IMG/VR virus record: IMGVR_UViG_3300035521_000566
Direction: 5' to 3' (one strand)
Length of the DNA stretch: 32,973 nt
Origin: a virus
Lineage: Duplodnaviria > Heunggongvirae > Uroviricota > Caudoviricetes
Under the pieces are notes generated by a model. The model was not told the DNA's origin. It made no database searches and saw nothing but the letters and a program-made list of their open reading frames with translations. The stretch's first letter is position 1. Every line of letters begins with the position of its first letter. Both the position numbers and the translations under genes were made by a program. Of the stretch, positions 7,869 to 25,020 are shown one piece after another.

Positions 7869-10800
7869 ATGAAATTTAATTTTTATGATATTGAGTCGCT
7901 AAAGAACGTATTTACACTTTGTAACGTTAGAGAGAATACAAAGACAGGACCAAATGAGCCAGAACTCATTGCTGATGTATTCTATTTATGTGACGATTTA
8001 TTCCTGCTGTCAGACCCGAACTTTGAAAAGAACCTCAAAGCTCGTGTCTATCAAAAGAATCAGAACTTCAACGGTCCAATTGAGCTCCATGACCTTCGAT
8101 TTGAAGTATCAAACCGCTTATTTGCTACAACATTTGGATTATCAGACGCTTATATGGCAAATGACCCTAAATCTTCGTCATCTTATCCAGCTGACTTTAG
8201 ATTAGTATGCGACACTGACCCTAATTATGACGAAGATGAGCATCCATACCTTATGGGCTACAATAGCTATAACTATGATACAACAATGCTTGCTATGTAC
8301 TTTTACGATACATGGCTGTTAGACAGTAACATGAATGTTTCGTTTCATATGCCGTCTGCCAGTCAGCTTCGTGAATATAATGATGAGTTATTCTCACCCA
8401 GATTCAAAGCAAGTATGCCACGAAGACTTCTTACTACGTACGCTGACCCTACTAAGAGAAGCTGGGCTCCAGATGATTATAGCAGCACTCTTTATCGTAT
8501 CAGACAGAATATGTTGTTTTCAGGCAGACACTTAGATGTAGCCCGATTAAATGAAAAGCAGTCTAAAGTCGGATTGAAGCGATTATTAGGAATGCTTGGT
8601 TATCAGATTCTTGAATCAGATAAGTTGTCCCAGGGGCAAGACCATATTGATACTACTGACCAGCTGTATGACCTGATTGCATATAATATTAGTGACTGTA
8701 TTAACTTGAAGATGTTATTTGGTCACAAATATTATCAAGCTCAGTTCTCTTTAAAGAGAGGACTACTCAAGAGTTATCCAGAGATTATGTATCAGCAGAA
8801 GAATGGAGAATATGCTCCTGACATAAGACCAAGCAAAGTTCGTCGTGACAGACTGACCATTGACTCTTCATCAGCACAGTTTGCCACAAAATCTTTGTGT
8901 CCATATGGTCACTTAACTGATATGCCTGTTGTCAGTTTCATGTATCCATCAGAAGAAAAGTCAAAAGAAACAGGTGTACCAAGAGTTAACATTCTTGAAG
9001 AAAGCAAGAAGTTCTTTTATTCAAAGTTTCAGCAGCCTGAGCTCCGTGCAAAGTTTGACATCATATATGATTACTATAAGAGCATCGAAGGCAAGAACTT
9101 TAATGAAAGCAAGACATATTACGAAGATTATGGCAATACGCCAAAGTACCAAAGACCACATTACTTGAGTGCAATGCCTAAAGCCGACTTATGTATGCCA
9201 TATTATAAAGCAGACGGCACCCCAAGCTCTTGCTTTGTCACTTTTTCTACTGGCGGTATTCACGGTGCTGAGCTAAACAGTAAACTTTTTGAGAGTCATT
9301 TAGCAGCATATCAGTCGCAAGTAGCTGATATGGATTATGTAAAATCTTTATATCCAGACCCTATTGACCTTAAGAAAGTTAAAGAAGTGACACTTCCAGA
9401 TGGAAGGGTAGAAAAAGCCACAAAGTTCTTAAAGTCAGGTTCTACACTGAAATGTGCATCATATAAAGACCTTAAAAAGAACGAACCTGTTTTATTCACG
9501 CTAAAAGACGATGGTTCCACTGAATTGAACAAAAAGTATGTTTATACTTCTTGTGATTTAGCTAACCACGAGGACTTTACTTCATACTATCCAAACCTGT
9601 TAATTCAGATGAGTGCCTTTTTCAATAAAGGTTTAGGCTACGATAGATACAAAGAAATCTTTGACAATAAGCAGAAATATGGCAAGCTTATGAACGATGA
9701 ATCTCTGTCAAAAGATGAGCGTGAGCTTTATAGTGTCCTTCGAGAAGGAACGAAGTTAATTTTAAACTCAGCTTCTGGTGCAGGCGACACTAACTTTGAA
9801 GGCAACATTCGTATGAACAATACGATTATCTCTATGCGAATCATTGGACAGTTATTCTCATGGAGAATCGGTCAGGCTCAGACTATCGAAGGTGCAAAGA
9901 TTACTTCAACCAATACTGATGGTCTTTATTCTGTCTTAGAAGAACAGCTAAACGCTATGATTCTTGAGAGAGAATCTAAGAACATTAACGTTGGAATTGA
10001 GCCAGAGCCAATCTACTTGATTTCGAAGGATTCAAATAATCGTCTTGAGATGAATCCAGACAATGGTAAAATAGTATCTGCCTCAGGTGGCACATTAGGC
10101 TGTCGTAAGGGACCTACACCAACAAAAGCTCTTGCACATCCAGCCATTATAGATTGGGCATTGTCTGAGTATTTAGTTGTAGCAGCTTTGAAAGCTAAAC
10201 CTACACTTGGCATTTACAAGCCATTCGACGATGAAACAGGTATGAATATATTGTTGTCAGCAAAAGACAAATTTGAACCAGTACAATTTCTGACCATGAT
10301 GCAGAATGTTATTGCAAGTTCCGTAGGTTCTATGAACTATATCTTTAACACGAATGATGCAAGCCCTGGAACTCCAATAATTATGCAGCATTACAATCGA
10401 GTATTTATCTTGAAAGATAATACACCTGGCACTGTTCACCTGCGTTCAGCATTTGCAAAGAGCATTACTCCTGCAATGAAGAACAAGCGTGCTAAGTTAG
10501 ACGAGCGTGCTCAGCAGCACGACCCTTTAAGTTTATCTGTATTAAACCAGAATGGTGTTACTCTTGACATGATTCCATCTGATAAAGAGGCTGTAATCAA
10601 GAAAGTAACAAATATCGAAGAAGAATGGTACATGTTCGTTCAGAATAAGGACTTAAATTACTTGTCAGATGAAGAGTACAACTTTATCATTGATAATCTG
10701 GACTATGACAAGTATCTGCAGTTGCTAAGAGACTGTTTTGAAAGTAACTGGCGTAATAAAATGCCAGATGACTATTCTGAAGAGGGTGATGACCCATCAG

Positions 10801-11144
10801 AACTGGAATCAGAATCAGAGCCTGAATCAGAAACAGCTGATACAGAATCAGATACCACTACAGTGGCACCTATTATCACAATAAATGCACCGACAGCACC
10901 AAATGTTGATAACGCTGACGATAATCATGCCGAAGACGATGGCAACACTGAGACTGAAGATGAGTCCACTTCAGATTCATCGGATACAGACAACGACTAT
11001 GATGATATAGATTATAGCGATATGTCTGATGCTGATGTTATGAAACTTGTTGCTGACATTGCATCCAGTGAAGCACTGTCATACTCACAACAGAAAAAGA
11101 AAATCGAGGACATTATATTGTCCTATCCTTACTGGGATGATTGA
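7869..11144 (+). CDS. Family B DNA polymerase with 3'-5' exonuclease (phage type)
   Basis: ExoI YDIES, ExoII GYNSYNYD, ExoIII YNISD; GGIHG; motif A DFTSYYPN, motif B KLILNSASG, motif C NTDG; acidic C-terminal tail. Confidence 0.9.
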   Translation: MKFNFYDIESLKNVFTLCNVRENTKTGPNEPELIADVFYLCDDLFLLSDPNFEKNLKARVYQKNQNFNGPIELHDLRFEVSNRLFATTFGLSDAYMANDPKSSSSYPADFRLVCDTDPNYDEDEHPYLMGYNSYNYDTTMLAMYFYDTWLLDSNMNVSFHMPSASQLREYNDELFSPRFKASMPRRLLTTYADPTKRSWAPDDYSSTLYRIRQNMLFSGRHLDVARLNEKQSKVGLKRLLGMLGYQILESDKLSQGQDHIDTTDQLYDLIAYNISDCINLKMLFGHKYYQAQFSLKRGLLKSYPEIMYQQKNGEYAPDIRPSKVRRDRLTIDSSSAQFATKSLCPYGHLTDMPVVSFMYPSEEKSKETGVPRVNILEESKKFFYSKFQQPELRAKFDIIYDYYKSIEGKNFNESKTYYEDYGNTPKYQRPHYLSAMPKADLCMPYYKADGTPSSCFVTFSTGGIHGAELNSKLFESHLAAYQSQVADMDYVKSLYPDPIDLKKVKEVTLPDGRVEKATKFLKSGSTLKCASYKDLKKNEPVLFTLKDDGSTELNKKYVYTSCDLANHEDFTSYYPNLLIQMSAFFNKGLGYDRYKEIFDNKQKYGKLMNDESLSKDERELYSVLREGTKLILNSASGAGDTNFEGNIRMNNTIISMRIIGQLFSWRIGQAQTIEGAKITSTNTDGLYSVLEEQLNAMILERESKNINVGIEPEPIYLISKDSNNRLEMNPDNGKIVSASGGTLGCRKGPTPTKALAHPAIIDWALSEYLVVAALKAKPTLGIYKPFDDETGMNILLSAKDKFEPVQFLTMMQNVIASSVGSMNYIFNTNDASPGTPIIMQHYNRVFILKDNTPGTVHLRSAFAKSITPAMKNKRAKLDERAQQHDPLSLSVLNQNGVTLDMIPSDKEAVIKKVTNIEEEWYMFVQNKDLNYLSDEEYNFIIDNLDYDKYLQLLRDCFESNWRNKMPDDYSEEGDDPSELESESEPESETADTESDTTTVAPIITINAPTAPNVDNADDNHAEDDGNTETEDESTSDSSDTDNDYDDIDYSDMSDADVMKLVADIASSEALSYSQQKKKIEDIILSYPYWDD

Positions 11145-12550: not shown

Positions 12551-12599
12551 ATTTTGTATTATGAACTTATTGCTATTATTTAGAATAGGGGATGAACTT

Positions 12600-13592
12600 A
12601 TGAAATACAAATTAAGAATATGTGTAACTTTATTGTTGTTAGTCGGTATACTCAATGCATGTACTAACCAAGATGATACTACCACATCTACAATCTATAA
12701 GGTTACGACTACAGATACTACGATTTCTGATATTCTGACTGAATCAGTATCGGAATTAGAATTAGAGATACCAAGTGTATCTACATTTGATAACGAACCT
12801 TATGTAGAAATCAACAACAATGTTCCGTATTTTGATGACGACGAGAAAAGCACCACAACTTCATTTGAAACATACTCTGATTTAGACGATTTAGGTAGAT
12901 GTGGAGTTGCCTATGCTTGTATTGGCAAAGACATTATGCCAACAGAAGAACGAGGAGAAATAGGTTCTGTCAAACCGTCAGGCTGGCATACCGTAAAATA
13001 TCCAGATGTTATATCTGACCTGTATCTATATAATCGCTGTCACCTGATTGCATACTGCTTAACAGGTGAAAATGCAAACGAGAAAAACTTAATCACAGGC
13101 ACCAGATACTTAAACATCACGGGAATGCTGCCGTTTGAAACGAGTGTGGCACAGTATATGGACAATAATCCAGATAACCATGTTCTGTATCGTGTAACAC
13201 CTATCTTCGAAGATGATAACTTAGTTGCTGACGGTGTTCTCATGGAAGGCTATTCTGTCGAAGACAACGGTGCTGGCATTCAGTTTTGCGTATTTTGCTA
13301 TAACGTTCAGCCAAATATTCAGATAGACTATAAGACAGGCGATTCAGCTGAACTTACAGTAAAGCAGACTGATACAACCGAAACGTCTGAAACTGATATT
13401 GACAATACAAGCAATGCAAAAGAATATGTATTGAACTCTAAATCAAAGAAGATACATATGCCAGACTGCTCTGCGTTATCTAACATGAGCGATGGCAACC
13501 GTATTGATACATTGTCTAATTATGATGACTTAATATCCAACGGTTATGAACCATGCGGAATTTGTCATCCAGAATCAAACCAGGAGGAATAA
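12600..13592 (+). CDS. Lipoprotein DNA/RNA non-specific endonuclease (EndA/DNA-entry nuclease-like) with C-terminal Ada-like Zn module
   Basis: Signal peptide with lipobox LNAC; LDDLGRC, YNRCHLI, NLITGTRYLN and YRVTP motifs; C-terminal KIHxxxC...GYEPCGICHP. Confidence 0.9.
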   Translation: MKYKLRICVTLLLLVGILNACTNQDDTTTSTIYKVTTTDTTISDILTESVSELELEIPSVSTFDNEPYVEINNNVPYFDDDEKSTTTSFETYSDLDDLGRCGVAYACIGKDIMPTEERGEIGSVKPSGWHTVKYPDVISDLYLYNRCHLIAYCLTGENANEKNLITGTRYLNITGMLPFETSVAQYMDNNPDNHVLYRVTPIFEDDNLVADGVLMEGYSVEDNGAGIQFCVFCYNVQPNIQIDYKTGDSAELTVKQTDTTETSETDIDNTSNAKEYVLNSKSKKIHMPDCSALSNMSDGNRIDTLSNYDDLISNGYEPCGICHPESNQEE

Positions 13593-15747: not shown

Positions 15748-17556
15748 ATGTCAAATAAATATAAAGAACAGGCTAAAACACTTGACGACGTATTGTATAA
15801 GTTAAATAAATACGGAAAGTGTGCCATTATCCGTCCAACAGGATTTGGCAAAACTTTTATATTAACTGAGCTTATTAAGCACTACAAAAAGGTGCTGTAT
15901 CTATACCCGTCTGCTGTTGTACGTGATACGGTCGTAAACCGTTATTATGATAGCATCTATGATGAGAATACAGACGACTACATTGACGAGGACGGTAATA
16001 GCATTGACCCTGAGACGGTTGACACATATATTGCTTTAAAGCAAATCAAAAATGTAGACCTTATGACCTATACAAAGCTGATTCGTCTTACAAACGAAGA
16101 ATTTGATGCTATGGACTATGACCTCATCTTATTCGATGAAGTGCATCGAGTAGGTGGTGCCAAGACTAAAATAGCCGTCAATCATCTCTTTGCAGCAAAT
16201 CCAACGGCTCACTTTGTTGGAGCAACTGCAACACCGACAAGAATGGACAACTTCGATGTTGTATCGGTCTTTTTCTCAGACATCATGACCTACACCTATA
16301 CACTGTTCGATGCGATTGAATCAGGTATGATTAAAAAGCCGAACTACTGTTACTGCACATATGATACTGAGAAAGACTTAAGAGAAGCAGCCCTCACTGC
16401 TGGTGAAAATCCAGATGACGACGACATAAAGACTATCTTAGCATCTAATTTAGTCGAGATTTCAAAGATTAACAATATGCCTAACATCATTCGCACTGTA
16501 TGCGATGAATATGCAGTAACAACCTCATATATGAAGTTTATCGCATTCTTCAGAAACATTCAGCATATGAATGAGTCGTTAGACCAGGTAGTCGACTGGT
16601 ATAAGCAGGCTTATCCAAACCATACTGTATCTGTACTTAAGATTTCCAGTCAGAACAATACAGAGAAAAACAACGTAGAAAAGCTCAATGACTTAAAGCC
16701 AGTTGATAATCACATTGACATCATTGCCTGCATTGATATGATAAACATGGGCTATCATGTTGATAACCTTGCTGGAATTGTTATGTACAGAGGTACTAAA
16801 TCAAATACAATATTCGTGCAGCAGTTAGGAAGAGCGTTATCTGCAGGTGCAAACAACTCTGCTATCGTATTCGATGTAGTAGATAATCTGCACCGTAAGG
16901 CAATTTATGAGCTTCGTGCTTCTCTTGTATCAAAGCGTACAAAGACTGCAAAATCAAAAAGAAGAGCAAAGTCTACATTCTATAAGCTTGATGAAGACAC
17001 ATTGAAGATAGTCGCCGTAGACAGTAAAGGTAAAAAGACTCCATCCATGTATCACATCGACGATGATACAGGACTTATATATGACAACAAGGGCAATTTA
17101 TCAACCCTCGTATGGGACTCTTCCACAAACGAGGTTTATGATAATGGTGCTGATACAGATAAAGACATCAATGTCATTACCAAAGAATGTCTAAATGCAG
17201 TCGGTCATATGGCTACTTATCGTGAGCTGATTGCCAAAGCTGTTGCAGAACCTATGACACAGCGTTGCAAATTTGCACTTGAGATGCATTTCAGGTCATG
17301 GTGCTTAAAGCACAAGATAAAATATCCGATTTCGGATTCTGACCTGGAAAAACTATATGGACGCTCCAAAAACGAGTTCTATGCTGAATTTTGTGACATC
17401 TTGCGTGATAACAAGATAGCATATCCATTACAGGACGCCAAAGAGCTTCTTGCTATCGGCGAGAATGATTCTACTGACGTGCCGCTAAGAATATGTGCAA
17501 AAGCCAGAAACGTTTCTATCAAGCAGATATTAGACGTGTTCGGCTTAACAGCTTAA
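15748..17556 (+). CDS. Superfamily 2 (DEAH/ResIII-like) helicase/ATPase
   Basis: PTGFGKT, FDEVHR, GATATPxRxD, DMINMGYH and QQLGRAL motifs. Confidence 0.9.
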   Translation: MSNKYKEQAKTLDDVLYKLNKYGKCAIIRPTGFGKTFILTELIKHYKKVLYLYPSAVVRDTVVNRYYDSIYDENTDDYIDEDGNSIDPETVDTYIALKQIKNVDLMTYTKLIRLTNEEFDAMDYDLILFDEVHRVGGAKTKIAVNHLFAANPTAHFVGATATPTRMDNFDVVSVFFSDIMTYTYTLFDAIESGMIKKPNYCYCTYDTEKDLREAALTAGENPDDDDIKTILASNLVEISKINNMPNIIRTVCDEYAVTTSYMKFIAFFRNIQHMNESLDQVVDWYKQAYPNHTVSVLKISSQNNTEKNNVEKLNDLKPVDNHIDIIACIDMINMGYHVDNLAGIVMYRGTKSNTIFVQQLGRALSAGANNSAIVFDVVDNLHRKAIYELRASLVSKRTKTAKSKRRAKSTFYKLDEDTLKIVAVDSKGKKTPSMYHIDDDTGLIYDNKGNLSTLVWDSSTNEVYDNGADTDKDINVITKECLNAVGHMATYRELIAKAVAEPMTQRCKFALEMHFRSWCLKHKIKYPISDSDLEKLYGRSKNEFYAEFCDILRDNKIAYPLQDAKELLAIGENDSTDVPLRICAKARNVSIKQILDVFGLTA

Positions 17557-17564
17557 TCAGACCA

Positions 17565-17601
17565 AAGCCCTGACTTGCTACGCAGGTTAGGGCTTCTATT
17601 T
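17565..17601 (+). terminator. Intrinsic terminator
   Basis: AAGCCCTGACTTGC/GCAGGTTAGGGCTT stem followed by CTATTT. Confidence 0.75.
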
Positions 17602-18775: not shown

Positions 18776-19015
18776 ATGCTCAAATTGATTGGCTATACTG
18801 GTAGTTTAAGCTTAAACGAAGAGGACACTGAAAATTGTTATTTCTTTGAAGACAATAATAAAAGATTATACTTTTGGAAAACTCTCACTTCAAATTTCTA
18901 TAATTTATGCACGTATGACGGAAACCAAGTCGGAATAGATGTATTGAATTATATACGAACCAGTCAGAGAGCATTTCATAATGGAAAATGGTTTGATGGG
19001 ATTAAATTTCGATAA
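18776..19015 (+). CDS. Hypothetical protein
   Basis: GAGGAGGTG RBS before ATG 18776. Confidence 0.65.
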   Translation: MLKLIGYTGSLSLNEEDTENCYFFEDNNKRLYFWKTLTSNFYNLCTYDGNQVGIDVLNYIRTSQRAFHNGKWFDGIKFR

Positions 19016-19035
19016 AAGAAAGACAGGTTACAATA

Positions 19036-19428
19036 ATGATTGAGATAAAGTGCTTAACAGATGAGATAGGAGATGAATACTTACCAGAATGGACAGAAAC
19101 CAAACTGTATTCCAAAGAATGTGATTATGGTGACATACCAAAACGACAAGAGCAAATGATTATGTTATACAACGCCATTGTCAAAGCTGAAAATTACTGG
19201 TATATGCATACTCCAACAGCATTTGGAAACCCTGACCATTCAATGTATGTCGGCATAGTGCGTGGTATGATAAGTGGTTTAGGCTGGGATTATCAAGAAA
19301 TAAATCATCAGATTGTCATAAAATCAGGTAAACGAACCATTATGACAATACAAAAGCCTAAAAAGTCACAATCTTATCGGGCTGCTGCAAAAGATAATGC
19401 AGACACATTAAATGAACTGGGATTATAA
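19036..19428 (+). CDS. Hypothetical protein
   Basis: 130-aa ORF co-oriented in the gene run. Confidence 0.7.
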   Translation: MIEIKCLTDEIGDEYLPEWTETKLYSKECDYGDIPKRQEQMIMLYNAIVKAENYWYMHTPTAFGNPDHSMYVGIVRGMISGLGWDYQEINHQIVIKSGKRTIMTIQKPKKSQSYRAAAKDNADTLNELGL

Positions 19429-19544
19429 GGAGAACCCATTATGAATAAAAAAAAGAAGAACTATTAAAAGCGTTTGTACCGTTTTGATGAAATCATTACG
19501 AAAAATAGTTGAAATTTATTAGCAAAAGAAAGGAGCCTAATATC

Positions 19545-19793
19545 ATGAAACACGTAGTAATTTGTTATTCCATTCATAATCGTGAAATTGCCAGTTATGA
19601 CACATTTGATACAATGGACGACGCTAAAGCGTTCTTAGAAAAGGATGCTCAAAACACATATGATGAAGAACTTAACAGTGCCTTAGAAAGTGAAAAAGAC
19701 CAAATAGAGCTTACTATTGATGACGACACAGCCTATTTATCGTCTCACAACGACGAATATTTATGGACCTGGGAAATCATATCAATTTCATAA
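19545..19793 (+). CDS. Hypothetical acidic protein
   Basis: GAAAGGAG RBS before ATG 19545. Confidence 0.7.
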   Translation: MKHVVICYSIHNREIASYDTFDTMDDAKAFLEKDAQNTYDEELNSALESEKDQIELTIDDDTAYLSSHNDEYLWTWEIISIS

Positions 19794-19807
19794 GGAGGTG
19801 AATAGTA

Positions 19808-20569
19808 TTGAAATGTACTGACCATTTAGGCAACGAATTTCCGTCAGTTAGTGCTATGTGCAGATATTGGAAGATAAATAAAAGAACATATAGTCGCAGA
19901 TTAAAAAATGGTCAGTCTGTAGCTGATGCTTTATCAATAAAGACAAAAGCCTCAAACAGAAGTAAAAGTGTTACTGACCATTTAGGTAACGAGTTTCCAT
20001 CTATTAGTGCTATGTGTAGACATTACAATACAAATAGCTCAAGTTACAAATACAAACTTGATAAAGGTTTATCACTTGAAGAAGCCTTAACAAAATCAAG
20101 CCCTATGGCAATATGTGTTACTGACCATTTAGGAAATAAGTTTCCATCTATCAGTGCTATGTGCAAGTATTGGAACATATCTGATAATAGCTATAAAAAG
20201 CGTATGCATCAAGGTTGGACAATGAAAGATGCACTAACGAAAACAGTATATACAAATGTACCAATCATAGACTTATACGGAAATGAATTTTCAAACATAA
20301 AGTCAATATGTGCATATTATAACCTTTCAATACCCACATATAAAGCAAGACTACGAAACAACTATTCTCAGATTGAATGTCTTGGAATAATACCATGCAT
20401 TAACAGTGTATCTTATAATTTAAAGATTATACCTAATCTCACCATTATTAAAAACATTGTTAATGACTATTACTTATGCAACTATCAGAACCATGAAGTT
20501 GCACTACTAAAAGACGATATAATTGAGTTTGCAACAGAATATTTGAAATCACATCAGGAAAGGAGATAA
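19808..20569 (+). CDS. DHxGN-repeat putative DNA-binding protein (4 repeats)
   Basis: Repeats of DHLGNEFPSISAMCxxW/Y...YxxRLxxGxSxxxALT; TTG start after AGGAGGTG. Confidence 0.8.
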   Translation: MKCTDHLGNEFPSVSAMCRYWKINKRTYSRRLKNGQSVADALSIKTKASNRSKSVTDHLGNEFPSISAMCRHYNTNSSSYKYKLDKGLSLEEALTKSSPMAICVTDHLGNKFPSISAMCKYWNISDNSYKKRMHQGWTMKDALTKTVYTNVPIIDLYGNEFSNIKSICAYYNLSIPTYKARLRNNYSQIECLGIIPCINSVSYNLKIIPNLTIIKNIVNDYYLCNYQNHEVALLKDDIIEFATEYLKSHQERR

Positions 20570-20574
20570 ACAAG

Positions 20575-21678
20575 ATGGCTAATCAGCACACAACGCAAAA
20601 GTGGATAGACCATAAGGGTAACGAATTCAAGTCTCTGTCTGCAATGGCACGATATTGGAACATACCGAATTCCACATTGCAAAACAGACTTGTTAGTCGA
20701 CATATGCCAATAGAACAGGCACTTACCCTGACATATGAACAAGCTAAATGCTTAAGCACACAGTGTACAGACCACTTAGGAAACATCTATCCGTCTAAAC
20801 AGGCTATGTGTGATGCTTATCATATTGATAGACAGATATACTTTGGCAGAATCGGTTTAGGCTGGTCGGTAGAAAAAGCACTTACTACGCCAGTCGATTA
20901 TACACCAAAGAACTCTAAAGCTATTATCGACCATCTTGGAAACGAATTCACTTCTATTTCTGATATGTGCAAATTTTGGAATATGACACGCTCTACTTAT
21001 AATGCCAGAATCAAGAACGGCTGGTCAATAGAAAGAGCTCTGACTGAACCTCAAAGACAAGTGAATATGAAACGTCAGAAATGGACTGACCATAAGGGTA
21101 ATGATTTTCCATCATTAAATGCTATGTGTGAGGCTTATGGTATTACCCATCACACATTTCATACCAGAGTTACTAAATTAGGCTGGTCAGTAGAGAAAGC
21201 ACTGACAACGCCTAATATCATAAATGCAACAGAATGTAGTGATAATATGGGACACACTTTTCCGTCTTTGACAGATATGTGCCACTATTATGGAATACCG
21301 CCCTACAGACTACAGGGAAAAACATTAACAGAAGAAAAGCTTCAAACCTGCTTGACATCACATTTTAAAGCCAATACGAAAGTAGGAGATGTTACAGTCG
21401 TAAAATGTATTGAATTTCCATATTATTTGATTAAAAAGGACTCACATGAGTTCGTCATTTCATTCGATGAGTTAGTACAAATATATCACAACGACAACTT
21501 TCATCCAATACCGAAAAACAAACTAAAAGATGAAAATCTTATCATCAAAGAATCAGTTGGTTTTCCGTATTATAATATCGAAATTAACGGAGAGTCTGCC
21601 GTGTGGGATTACTGGCAGATTATTCAATACAGACACGACTCAAACTTCGGACTTTCGTCACTTAGAAAAGGAGAATAG
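20575..21678 (+). CDS. DHxGN-repeat putative DNA-binding protein (5 repeats plus duplicated C-terminal FPYY domain)
   Basis: Five repeats, three ending GWS[VI]E[KR]ALT; two C-terminal FPYY...HxxNF units. Confidence 0.8.
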   Translation: MANQHTTQKWIDHKGNEFKSLSAMARYWNIPNSTLQNRLVSRHMPIEQALTLTYEQAKCLSTQCTDHLGNIYPSKQAMCDAYHIDRQIYFGRIGLGWSVEKALTTPVDYTPKNSKAIIDHLGNEFTSISDMCKFWNMTRSTYNARIKNGWSIERALTEPQRQVNMKRQKWTDHKGNDFPSLNAMCEAYGITHHTFHTRVTKLGWSVEKALTTPNIINATECSDNMGHTFPSLTDMCHYYGIPPYRLQGKTLTEEKLQTCLTSHFKANTKVGDVTVVKCIEFPYYLIKKDSHEFVISFDELVQIYHNDNFHPIPKNKLKDENLIIKESVGFPYYNIEINGESAVWDYWQIIQYRHDSNFGLSSLRKGE

Positions 21679-21679
21679 C

Positions 21680-22741
21680 ATGACAAAACATACGCTTTTT
21701 AGCCGATTAAGAGCACCAAAGACTTCAGACAGAATTTTGCTTCTGACACACACTGATATGGATGGAGCTGGAGCTGCAATCTTAGCAAAGCTTCTCTTTC
21801 CAAACTTAGAAATCAAGCATTGTTCAAACGGCAATATGTCATATGAGATTAAGAATGCCGTAATGAATGCTGAATTAAATAAGAATTTTGACATGTTTAT
21901 TGCATGTGACATCTCATGCAACGAGCATGACGCTGAGGTTATTCAGAAGTCACCAAATTGCAGCAAGCTTGTTGTATTGGACCACCATATGACAGCCTCA
22001 GACTTGAATGAGTATGCTTGGGCTTGTGTAACAAACGCTATACCAGTAGATTCTTACAGATTAACTGAAGGCTATGTCTCTGACAACTGCTCATCTTCAG
22101 GAACATCTCTTATGTATGATTATTTGGATTACTGTGGTCTTATCAAACCTAATATCCCACACCTGGACTTATGTAAAAAGATTGTAGACGCAATTGCTCT
22201 TTACGACACATGGGACTGGGCAAACATATATGACCGTGAATCAACAATTCCATACGAGCTGAATACATTGTTTGATATTTATGATACTGATGCCTTTGAA
22301 GACAGCATGATTTCAAAAATCAAAAATAATTTATGCAATACTATGCTGGATGATACAGACATAATGGTACTCGCTATCGAGCAGCATCGCATCAACAATC
22401 ATCTTGCTGGCGTAGAAAAAGGCTTTCACACAGGCAATCTCAAGATGAATAATAAGTATTATTCAGTCGTATTCTGCAGCAATGACAAGTATCTGAATAA
22501 CACATTTGACCATATGAAAGACATATATCCTGATTATGACTTATACATCATCAATTACGGCAGTGGTATCGGTGTCAGAGCCACAAAGCCAGACATCAAT
22601 GTTGGTGCAATTTTAAAGACCATCGGTGGCGGCGGTCACGCTGGTGCTGGTGGCGTCAAGATTTCACTCGAAAATCAGGCAGCTTATCTTGCAAACGCAC
22701 TTTCAGCTGACTTATATGTCGACGACCCTAAAGACAAATAA
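21680..22741 (+). CDS. DHH/DHHA1 phosphoesterase, NrnB/YngD-like nanoRNase
   Basis: THTDMDG, CDIS, LDHH, YDTWDW and GGGHAGAGG motifs; start moved to ATG 21680 by the AAGGAG RBS. Confidence 0.85.
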   Translation: MTKHTLFSRLRAPKTSDRILLLTHTDMDGAGAAILAKLLFPNLEIKHCSNGNMSYEIKNAVMNAELNKNFDMFIACDISCNEHDAEVIQKSPNCSKLVVLDHHMTASDLNEYAWACVTNAIPVDSYRLTEGYVSDNCSSSGTSLMYDYLDYCGLIKPNIPHLDLCKKIVDAIALYDTWDWANIYDRESTIPYELNTLFDIYDTDAFEDSMISKIKNNLCNTMLDDTDIMVLAIEQHRINNHLAGVEKGFHTGNLKMNNKYYSVVFCSNDKYLNNTFDHMKDIYPDYDLYIINYGSGIGVRATKPDINVGAILKTIGGGGHAGAGGVKISLENQAAYLANALSADLYVDDPKDK

Positions 22742-22789
22742 CACCAGAAGAACTTTTTTATCTATAATGTTTCAAAACAGGAGGTATAC

Positions 22790-23167
22790 ATGCAGACATT
22801 TTATAAAAAGTATCACAACAAGAGTGTAGAAGACGGCATCTCTGTAATGAGCAAAGAAGCCAAAAGCTTTGTCACTGCATTTCGAAATATGTTAAAGCGT
22901 GAGCTTTCACCATACGGAATCGAGGTTCTTTCGTTAAAGCCAAATCATTATGATTGCTCAGGCTTTGTAAAGAAAGATGATAAATATGTTTATATACATT
23001 ATTCGATTCCACGATACGGAACTTATATCAATTTTAAAAATGCAAGCTTTCAGAATGGTGTTCTTATAAGGCTTGCTGACAATGACCATGATTTCAAAGG
23101 TTATGACAACCACTTCAGCAGCATTTATGACCTGCCAACATCTATCAGAAGATTATTGGAGTCATAG
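22790..23167 (+). CDS. Hypothetical protein
   Basis: AGGAGG RBS; 125 aa. Confidence 0.75.
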   Translation: MQTFYKKYHNKSVEDGISVMSKEAKSFVTAFRNMLKRELSPYGIEVLSLKPNHYDCSGFVKKDDKYVYIHYSIPRYGTYINFKNASFQNGVLIRLADNDHDFKGYDNHFSSIYDLPTSIRRLLES

Positions 23168-23180
23168 AAAGGAGTATATT

Positions 23181-23471
23181 ATGGAAGTTACAAAAATGCT
23201 GACACTTTCAACTGCTCACATTACAGAACAAACAGCAAGAGCATTAGACAACGAGCCTGACTCAGACAAGCTAAATCTTTGTGTTTATCCAAAATCAGAA
23301 TTTGGTTGGTATATTGCTATCACTGATAATATTGATGAAATAATCAATGATAAGGGTATGCCTGAAGATTTAGCTGATGCAATTCGACTGACTAAAGACT
23401 TGGATTGCAAGACCTTATGCTTTGACTGTGATTGTGAACCATTATCGTATCTGAAAACATACAGCTGGTAA
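23181..23471 (+). CDS. DUF5983-like protein
   Basis: MLTLSTAHIT...GW...P.DL...FDCD...L..YSW pattern; GAAAGGAG RBS before ATG 23181. Confidence 0.6.
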   Translation: MEVTKMLTLSTAHITEQTARALDNEPDSDKLNLCVYPKSEFGWYIAITDNIDEIINDKGMPEDLADAIRLTKDLDCKTLCFDCDCEPLSYLKTYSW

Positions 23472-23484
23472 AGGAGAATACAGT

Positions 23485-23901
23485 ATGAAATATTATGATA
23501 TTTATATAACAGTAGAAGGCGATAGTAAAGAAGGTTACTCTGTTTTCATAGACGCAGAAGATGAAAAGACAGCAGTTGCTAAACTGAAATCTGAAAACTT
23601 ATGTGAGGACCCTGACGATGTGAATCACATCAAAGCCATCACACCGATTTCACTCACACAGTTCTGTCAGGAAAAAGGAATTCCTGTTCCAACCAGAACC
23701 TTAGATGTAACTTGCACATGTCAAGCATATTATACAAGTAGCATCGAAGTTCCCGCAGATTTTACGCTCAAACAAGCAATAGAGTATGCAAAGGACCATA
23801 TTCGTGACATTCCAATTCAGAGTTCATTAGAATATGTGAGCGAGTCTGATGAACTCGATGAAGAAAATTGCGAATTTGACAACCACTGTCCTGATATGTA
23901 G
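23485..23901 (+). CDS. Hypothetical protein
   Basis: AAGGAG RBS; 138 aa. Confidence 0.7.
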   Translation: MKYYDIYITVEGDSKEGYSVFIDAEDEKTAVAKLKSENLCEDPDDVNHIKAITPISLTQFCQEKGIPVPTRTLDVTCTCQAYYTSSIEVPADFTLKQAIEYAKDHIRDIPIQSSLEYVSESDELDEENCEFDNHCPDM

Positions 23902-23909
23902 GTGATTTT

Positions 23910-24875
23910 ATGAAAAGAAATACTACCAGACGTACAGAATTTATTGACCATAAAAATAACATATTCCAATCTCTTGACGAAATGTGCAATTACTGGAATG
24001 TATCAAAAGGTACTTACCAAGACAGATACCGCAAACATTGGTCAACCGAGGAATGCCTCACAGGTCGCAAGCGTGTTACAGCCCGTTATATAGACTGCAT
24101 TGACCATAAAGGGAATAAATTCTCGTCAGTTAAAGAAATGTGTGATTATTGGAACATCAAATACTCTACATTTCTGGGACGACGTAGACGTGGTTATTCT
24201 ATTGAAGAGGCACTGACATACGCAGGTAACGATAATCAATTTCAAGTGAAAGACCATCTTGGAAACATATTTTCCAGCATAGACGAGATATGTAACCATT
24301 ATGGAATCACTGTTTCTATGTATTATCAGCGTCTCAACAAAGGCTGGTCATTAGAAAAGACGCTGACAACAAGACCTCGATACAAGAAAAAAAGGTTAAA
24401 TGAATCCAAGATAGAACGCACAGACCATAACGGTACAACATATAAATCTGTAAAAGATATGTGCAAAAACCATGGAATCGAAACCTTAACATATCTTCGA
24501 AGATTGGAACGTGGCTGGGACAAAGAACAGGCTTTGACCCAAGAGATAGACACGACAAAACACGGAATGCAAATGGTTGACCCATACGGCAAAACATACC
24601 CTATGCTGAAAGATATGTTAAATGCATATTCCATCAATATGTCAACATATCAGGAACGCAATAGAAAAGGATATTCTTTAGCCGAATGTCTGGGTATTGT
24701 TCCACTTCTAAATGACAAAATAAAGGACTACAAAGTCAACGACAACTTTGTCATATTAGAAGAAATTGAAGAAACAAATGATGATGCAAAACTCTTTTTC
24801 TTATGCATTGTTAACGGTCATGAAGTCATCATGCGTAGAGAAAATGTCATCAACTATTGTCTAAATGCATCATAG
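23910..24875 (+). CDS. DHxGN-repeat putative DNA-binding protein (5 repeats)
   Basis: Five repeats; C-terminal ECLGIVP...FLC...HEV domain shared with 19808..20569. Confidence 0.8.
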   Translation: MKRNTTRRTEFIDHKNNIFQSLDEMCNYWNVSKGTYQDRYRKHWSTEECLTGRKRVTARYIDCIDHKGNKFSSVKEMCDYWNIKYSTFLGRRRRGYSIEEALTYAGNDNQFQVKDHLGNIFSSIDEICNHYGITVSMYYQRLNKGWSLEKTLTTRPRYKKKRLNESKIERTDHNGTTYKSVKDMCKNHGIETLTYLRRLERGWDKEQALTQEIDTTKHGMQMVDPYGKTYPMLKDMLNAYSINMSTYQERNRKGYSLAECLGIVPLLNDKIKDYKVNDNFVILEEIEETNDDAKLFFLCIVNGHEVIMRRENVINYCLNAS

Positions 24876-24883
24876 TTAAGTAC

Positions 24884-24920
24884 AGGGTGTTAGCACATTG
24901 CAATGTGCTAATGCCCTTTA
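24884..24920 (+). terminator. Long palindrome/terminator-like hairpin
   Basis: AGGGTGTTAGCACATTGCAATGTGCTAATGCCCT with a perfect 22-bp palindromic core (24890-24911) and a short T tract. Confidence 0.6.
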
Positions 24921-25020
24921 AAATTCTTAATGTTTCTATAAATCCAATTAGAAACATTAAATAAATAACATTAAATAAATGATTGTATAACAAAATCAAT
25001 AACTAAGAGAGGTATAAGTA

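Follow-up and report, generated by a model that had tools for sequence, protein, structure and literature searches.

Helix-turn-helix (HTH) modules that tether homing endonucleases are already known, and the HTHs of I-TevI, I-HmuI and the Paulinella protein sCTP-23166 have been found to share one common fold (PMC10319021). In this fold, the second HTH helix occupies the major groove and is conserved least of all (PMC10319021). For sCTP-23166, DNA binding is established experimentally, and its recognition helix is again poorly conserved (PMC10319021). What is new here is that thousands of proteins from phages and mobile elements carry this module in long tandem arrays free of any nuclease, arrays of which we found no description in the searched literature. 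We focus on three such proteins, A, B and C, encoded by a virus of the Caudoviricetes (IMG/VR record IMGVR_UViG_3300035521_000566) in a stretch of 32,973 nucleotides (nt), the whole of which was analysed and is referred to below as the window. Our preferred reading, to which we give a probability of roughly 0.55, is that A, B and C are nuclease-free, monomeric HTH arrays of the I-TevI/I-HmuI type and act as sequence-specific DNA binders in the early/replication programme of the phage. The genes and their parts, with lengths in amino acids (aa), are as follows.

19808-20569, + strand: gene A, 253 aa, TTG start after AAGGAGG, four units and a C-terminal domain, isoelectric point (pI) 9.25
19814-20395, + strand: A array, units at 19814-19945, 19970-20101, 20117-20248 and 20264-20395
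20396-20569, + strand: A C-terminal small domain (..YYLC..HE..), stop codon counted in
20575-21678, + strand: gene B, 367 aa, five units (the last degenerate) and two C-terminal domains
20602-21366, + strand: B array, units at 20602-20733, 20764-20895, 20923-21054, 21082-21213 and 21235-21366
21367-21534, + strand: B C-terminal domain, copy 1 (..FPYYLI..HE..)
21523-21678, + strand: B C-terminal domain, copy 2 (..FPYYNI..)
23910-24875, + strand: gene C, 321 aa, five units and a C-terminal domain
23940-24704, + strand: C array, units at 23940-24071, 24096-24227, 24246-24377, 24417-24548 and 24573-24704
24705-24875, + strand: C C-terminal small domain, four strands and a helix in the AlphaFold model, residues 272-320

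Motif scanning and alignment place 4 + 5 + 5 = 14 units of 44 aa in the three proteins, with the consensus xxDHxGNxFPSxxxMCxYYNIxxxTYxxRxxxGWSxExALT, in which D3 and L40 are invariant over the 14. A first-pass annotation of this DNA had counted four, five and five copies of a unit of about 50 aa in the open reading frames (ORFs) that start at 19808, 20575 and 23910. The count and the repeat itself stand, and a hidden Markov model (HMM) of the 14 units recovers exactly those 14 from the six-frame translation of the window, with no further units elsewhere in it; the unit itself measures 44 aa and the period, with its short linkers between units, 49-57 aa. In B, the second half of the fifth unit is degenerate, and B orthologues keep an LQGK motif at that place. 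The final units of A and C both belong to a distinct variant (D-L/P-Y-G ... ECLGI-I/V-P). Units 2-5 and the tail of C are matched collinearly by A (36% identity, E 6e-51), and A and C are therefore whole-gene paralogues. No DNA-level tandem repeats were found in the arrays, which are thus old; recent internal duplication was ruled out on the same ground.

A single unit is predicted by AlphaFold2 to form a beta-hairpin and three helices with a mean confidence (pLDDT) of 92, so that the HTH fold, for which the first-pass annotation had proposed just such a check, is what the model gives. In the model of the whole of C (mean pLDDT 85), unit helices of 7, 9 and 6 residues follow the beta-hairpin, and the predicted template modelling score (pTM) of 0.40 means that the relative arrangement of the units is undefined. 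When the unit model was ranked with VIA-align against 48,161 representative chains of the Protein Data Bank (PDB), the first match was 8b6e_B, the DNA-binding Paulinella sCTP-23166 (Z 3.5, root-mean-square deviation (rmsd) 2.1, 39/44 residues, 20% identity). Second and third came the HTHs of I-TevI (Z 3.0, 36 aa, rmsd 2.1) and I-HmuI (Z 2.9, 40 aa, rmsd 2.5), the predicted beta-hairpin and HTH being superposable on residues 205-240 of the former and 123-166 of the latter. Furthermore, a Foldseek search of predicted viral structures (BFVD) returned 13 matches at E<=0.001, with probability up to 1.0, and those that are named are mostly intron-associated, HNH and GIY-YIG endonucleases, together with one 'Nuclease-associated modular DNA-binding 1' (NUMOD1) protein. 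The NUMOD1-type likeness proposed earlier is thus borne out, and the models support the assignment of the unit to the beta-hairpin and HTH of the I-TevI/I-HmuI (NUMOD1) type. The structural relatives all bind double-stranded DNA (PMC10319021), which speaks against the arrays being readers of RNA that serve the putative tRNA-like RNAs of the window; as, in addition, no RNA-binding family was matched and array relatives are present at loci without such RNAs, we consider that role very improbable.

The relation to homing endonucleases can also be followed by sequence. In Pfam, A, B and C have only sub-threshold matches, to HTH_36, PVL_ORF50 and NUMOD1, and their best profile matches are PHROG 1065, of unknown function (2.6e-31), and PHROG 3377 (2.8e-27). 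Relatives score higher: P0065 passes the cut-off both for I-TevI_DNA-bd (PF20987; 29.6 vs 27) and for PVL_ORF50 (74 bits), thereby tying the unit to the homing-endonuclease HTH by sequence too, P0066, P0135, P0197 and P0105 score 19-25 in the I-TevI-type HTH family test, and PVL_ORF50 is above cut-off in many relatives, at 29-74 bits. NCBIfam and PADLOC gave no match for A, B and C, and no membership in a defence system or a curated bacterial family emerged from them. As the first-pass annotation had noted, no nuclease is attached: Pfam, PHROGs, NCBIfam and PADLOC detect no nuclease family in A, B or C, and none is seen in the AlphaFold model of C.

PHROG 3377 carries the label 'HNH endonuclease', and three cultured-phage proteins that match B are so called: Bacillus phage B83 gp49 (L001:3055-3573), BMBtp14 gp31 (L016:1450-1944) and Acetoanaerobium phage CDS56 (L017:1477-1986). 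Pfam finds no HNH domain in any of the three. Only 1-2 units per protein score with the unit HMM, and about three HTH repeats without the hairpin can be seen in each translation. The reading of the family as HNH endonucleases by way of PHROG 3377 was accordingly rejected. The name has probably spread from that PHROG, and as a practical matter these three annotations are unreliable, no nuclease domain being found in them by Pfam.

If the unit is a DNA-binding module, the question is where its specificity might reside. Over 1,668 units, the scaffold is conserved at D3, H4, G6, F/Y9, M15, C16, Y19, R29, G33, L40 and T41. The four positions of highest entropy among 43 (23, 27, 28 and 24; 3.66-3.85 bits) all lie in helix 2, an outcome with a chance of about 0.001 (C(9,4)/C(43,4)), and are occupied predominantly by Ser, Arg, Lys, Tyr and Asn. 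Positions 25, 26, 29 and 30 between them are conserved, which leaves a variable i, i+1, i+4, i+5 stripe on one helical face. The variable segment that had been placed at the expected recognition helix is thus located there, and the family pairs an unchanging scaffold with hypervariability at a few sites of the predicted DNA-facing element. In seven C orthologues, identity at the variable helix-2 positions is 43% between orthologous units vs 11.5% between different units; for other surface positions, the figures are 37% and 21%. The retention of helix-2 identity unit by unit fits unit-specific recognition.

Such conservation would be unexpected for non-specific binding, and the units carry a modest net charge (0 to +5 each). 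Both points argue against the arrays being low-specificity proteins that coat or compact DNA by avidity and so shield phage DNA or reorganize the host nucleoid, which we think unlikely, even though the proteins are basic (pI 8.3-9.3), arrays reach 15-17 units and the HTH of I-TevI makes few base-specific contacts. Were binding non-specific, the proteins would be merely abundant phage DNA-binding accessory proteins.

A simple code of the kind used by transcription activator-like effectors (TALEs) is unlikely. The TALE-like logic proposed in the first-pass annotation would call for a small residue alphabet, and this is contradicted by the 1,437 distinct four-residue signatures among 1,657 units (1,565 with shuffled columns); the few recurrent signatures probably come from closely related proteins of about 900 aa. 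The conserved His and Cys, which had been put forward for metal analysis, occur once each per unit, and Cys16 is replaced by Ala or Leu in 16% of units, so that a metal site is not supported. Cys16 lies in helix 1 next to Met15 and, by approximate mapping, roughly near the sCTP core residues Ala23/Ala24 (PMC10319021).

In the mechanism that we propose for A, B and C, helix 2 of every unit would enter the major groove. The exposed positions 23, 24, 27 and 28, together with the flanking positions 22, 31 and 32, would set each unit's own preference, and four or five consecutive units would read a long, asymmetric site, which we estimate at a few tens of base pairs (bp). The small C-terminal beta domain may then serve as a partner-contact or dimerization head, and the proteins might act as repressors, as activators or as markers that draw another activity to chosen sites. 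It is the missing cutting domain, combined with the position of the genes in the + strand early/replication run, that leads us to regard them as putative site-specific binding factors and not as endonucleases. A more far-reaching proposal is that of a widespread modular HTH reader, in which units each read a few adjacent bases, largely on their own, through four to five helix-2 residues, their order spells the target and the heads (small beta domain, DUF2726-type or GIY-YIG nuclease, SF2 helicase or sigma region 2) are interchangeable. We rate this as rather improbable; if true, zinc fingers and TALEs would be joined by a third scaffold for programmable recognition of DNA by proteins.

The family extends far beyond this locus. 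A search of 1.84 billion representative proteins (clusters) with the unit profile yielded 6,719 protein clusters at E<=0.001 and 1,535 at E<=1e-30, and no curated family in Pfam, NCBIfam or PADLOC covers them. Nor is the family peculiar to this element, with thousands of members elsewhere, some of them with nuclease-like domains. The 210 array proteins retrieved, a sample biased to unit-rich proteins, have 1 to 17 units each with a mode of 7. Named sources are few, namely metagenome-assembled genomes (MAGs) of Butyrivibrio, Lachnospiraceae, Clostridiales and Acetobacterium. The unit was detected at E<=1e-5 in 0/150 other genomes sampled from the order of one Lachnospiraceae MAG, by which a core bacterial gene was rejected. 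The arrays are found in phage fragments, in a region resembling an integrative and conjugative element and at a chromosomal site after a RumA-type methyltransferase; this sporadic occurrence and these contexts place the family largely on mobile elements. One contig of 9,977 bp (L007) has a four-unit ORF of 184 aa at both ends (164-718 and 9344-9898) and may be a circular element or have a terminal repeat.

The great majority of sampled family members are nuclease-free, and a minority are joined to other domains. P0073 has a GIY-YIG nuclease of the group-I-intron type (TIGR01453, 1.4e-17) amid divergent units. A C-terminal domain of about 175 aa, with conserved GE, RxDF, IExDGxQH, DxxK and LRIRxDQ motifs, is present in 16/211 sampled relatives (P0065, P0041, P0031, P0197 and 12 more, all outside the window). 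Pfam DUF2726 is matched in 7/13 of the members scanned, above its cut-off of 24.7 in two (P0065, 25.6; P0041, 25.7), and there is one weak REase_MTES_1575 match. We take DUF2726 to be a member of the restriction-endonuclease-like (PD-(D/E)XK) clan, and the domain is therefore read as a probable nuclease head, so that the array proteins that bear it are, judging from sequence, probably HTH-array-guided nucleases. A second recurrent C-terminal head, Cys-rich (FEDG ... HP ... CxCxxCG ... H) and with no family match, is found in 11 relatives (P0105, P0125, P0148, P0171 and 7 more, likewise outside the window). P0068 joins a ResIII-type superfamily 2 (SF2) helicase to five units, P0074 has two units and an AAA/PDDEXK_9 part, and P0196 combines sigma-70 region 2 with six units and may be a sigma-like protein in which the array stands in for region 4. 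From these varied fusions, the unit appears to behave as a general DNA-targeting module, and A, B and C are its version without an enzyme.

The existence of nuclease-bearing relatives, along with the likeness of the unit to the HTH of homing endonucleases, also raises the possibility that the arrays are relics or derivatives of homing endonucleases, either decaying selfish genes or binding-only proteins that protect a homing site from nuclease-bearing relatives. The genes are tightly wedged among unrelated genes, as free-standing homing-endonuclease genes are, and gene order differs between the window and L002, a 9.2-kb metagenome contig from a related phage: B and C orthologues are adjacent in this one related fragment vs 2.2 kb apart in the window, from which it follows that array genes change position with respect to the genes around them. 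The ORFs are, on the other hand, intact and have orthologues of identical architecture at 44-60% identity overall (44-55% for the seven of C type, with architecture unchanged), and this, with the unit-specific conservation, indicates lasting selection, not decay. As the sampled family is mostly nuclease-free and the window holds no cognate nuclease-bearing paralogue, we regard an origin of this kind as an improbable account of A, B and C. In L002, the B-type and C-type array genes overlap by 4 nt, and the orthologue proteins are 45-48% identical; that the two types are maintained there side by side counts in favour of sequence-specific binding factors. Downstream in L002 lie a UDG-family gene, a homologue of Endonuclea_NS_2 (50% identical to that at window 12561-13592) and an RRXRR-HNH protein.

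The setting of the genes is that of a replication/early region of a large uncultured phage of the gut or rumen. The window (about 36% GC) encodes a D5-type primase-helicase, a PD-(D/E)XK exonuclease (DUF3799), an SF2 helicase, an Endonuclea_NS_2 nuclease and two DHH phosphoesterases, and the gene C protein is on record in contigs of up to 210 kb. Proteins of the PVL ORF-50-like and PHROG type are likewise found in phage early/replication regions (PMC12323379). A, B and C all belong to one long + strand gene run and are preceded by good ribosome-binding (Shine-Dalgarno) sites, and A and B, both on the + strand, are spaced by 5 nt. The B stop overlaps the ATG of a DHH/DHHA1 phosphoesterase gene (21677-22741) at window 21676-21679, which makes translational coupling of the two probable. 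This gene and three small ORFs are contained in the span 19808-24875 as well and are unrelated to the arrays; the three small ORFs, all orphans, precede C. The 145-bp gap 3' of C has a perfect 22-bp palindrome at window 24890-24911 (TTAGCACATTG/CAATGTGCTAA), followed by a 14-bp unit, AACATTAAATAAAT, present twice in exact tandem at window 24953-24980; palindrome and tandem copies could be a terminator and/or an operator for the next gene run. A promoter scan was uninformative, with 46 promoter-like sites vs 37.5 +/- 5.3 in shuffles. At E<=0.001, neither Pfam nor PHROGs has a match for a 1,091-aa ORF in the replication operon (window 7869-11144). Window 19000-25000 has no DNA-level match among cultured phages, and relatives of C and of the DHH protein were not found in IMG/VR, where a 38-mer taken from gene C was likewise without an exact match.

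The SF2 helicase of the window (15748-17556), nuclease-free and conserved, lies 2.2 kb upstream of A and introduces the main rival to, or extension of, our reading: the arrays might be targeting adaptors that recruit or load a separate enzyme, chiefly this helicase, perhaps through the C-terminal beta domain. It is not our primary reading, and we hold it to be possible but doubtful. The fusion in P0068 lends it substance, the window helicase being 23% identical to the helicase part of that protein, and in a Lachnospiraceae MAG (L018:5279-8653), a helicase 33% identical to that of the window (E 6e-69) stops one base short of an 11-unit array gene. Homologues of the helicase and array proteins furthermore list longest contigs of the same size (7,408, 16,466, 53,104 and 193,288 bp), which suggests shared contigs; shared synteny of related phages would, however, suffice for such co-occurrence. 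Within the window, the helicase and A are set apart by a terminator-like hairpin of 14 pairs (17565-17595) and by six to seven small ORFs. Elsewhere, array domains occur in 0/120 of the best helicase homologues, the helicase being a core gene product of about 600 aa in many large phages; no array lies close to the distant homologues of the helicase on four fecal phage scaffolds, and among about 20 other array loci this helicase was seen only in L018. General adjacency to the helicase was dropped as a candidate, being unseen in the four fecal scaffolds and in the top 120 homologues.

With regard to the C-terminal domain, the first-pass annotation had seen a related small domain at the end of all three proteins, doubled in B, and one HMM family, with members about 41 aa in length, indeed unites the domains of A and of C with the two B copies. 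The same domain occurs in 57/211 sampled relatives, at the very end in 53/57 and in two to three copies in 11, and has no Pfam match. Its structural look-alikes are weak (best Z 4.3), with many Tudor/SH3-like barrels and the NusG KOW among them; CarD (Z 3.8/3.6), UvrD (3.6/3.3), PcrA (3.5) and the Mfd RID (3.2) are within the range of a common small fold. The predicted fold is compatible with an RNA-polymerase-contact head or another partner-binding head. In the C tail, a beta domain of about 55 aa, there are no invariant acidic or His residues, and none of the four positions invariant among C orthologues is obviously catalytic, so a hidden nuclease is unlikely.

Several points weigh against reading A, B and C as sequence-specific binding factors. 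First of all, the structural Z values of the unit are low in absolute terms (2.9-3.5), which is due to its tiny size, and Foldseek found no significant match in the PDB for either the whole C model or the single unit, the former being beads on a string and the latter too short. PDB sequence and profile searches with B, the unit profile and P0065 likewise gave chance matches only. Second, the family scores of the three proteins themselves fall below the cut-offs: NUMOD1 reaches 19.5 bits in A and 13.0 in C vs 22.8, and PVL_ORF50 (PF07768) 22.0 bits in C vs 27, with A and B not listed. Third, exposed positions of small domains vary anyway, so that the excess in helix 2 is a matter of degree, and the conservation of orthologous units is in part shared descent. 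Finally, a regulatory role is drawn solely from the missing nuclease and the genomic position, and the neighbouring small ORFs are all orphans. Taken together, what the first-pass annotation observed is confirmed and its interpretation partly supported: the structural part is borne out by the models, the functional part is plausible, and the putative per-module code, the possible role as regulators or host-reprogramming factors and the predicted DNA binding by A, B and C are points of inference.

If the units do each read a few bases, the family would account for the marking of long, specific DNA sites by large phages of the gut and rumen, and designed DNA recognition would gain a compact scaffold made of protein alone. 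Recognition rules could then be deduced from the natural cleavage sites of the nuclease-bearing relatives.

We close by comparing A, B and C with described systems. By analogy only, they resemble TALEs, C2H2 zinc fingers and Psq/Myb HTH repeats in having tandem modules with a constant scaffold and few variable positions; those proteins have unrelated folds (TALEs, zinc fingers) or belong to unrelated families, and neither a small residue alphabet nor a constant count of base pairs per unit is evident in the arrays. The PVL ORF-50-like proteins (PF07768; staphylococcal and Bacillus phages, unknown function) and PHROGs 1065/3377 are the best sequence-profile matches; those proteins, on the other hand, appear to be limited to some two to three HTH units, and the DHxGN hairpin is absent from the three cultured-phage examples. 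Paulinella sCTP-23166 (PDB 8B6E), the top structural match, is a nuclease-free use of the same HTH; the sCTPs, however, are single stand-alone modules in a eukaryote and not tandem arrays. Close in kind are I-TevI (PDB 1T2T/1I3J), I-HmuI (PDB 1U3E) and NUMOD1 (PF07453/PF20987/PF22083), in which a beta-hairpin is likewise followed by an HTH and modules are carried on flexible linkers. There, one or a few modules stand by a nuclease, whereas here four to five (in relatives up to 17) stand without one; a third short helix (SxExALT) takes the place of the closing strand, and the DHxGN hairpin motif is specific to the array family.

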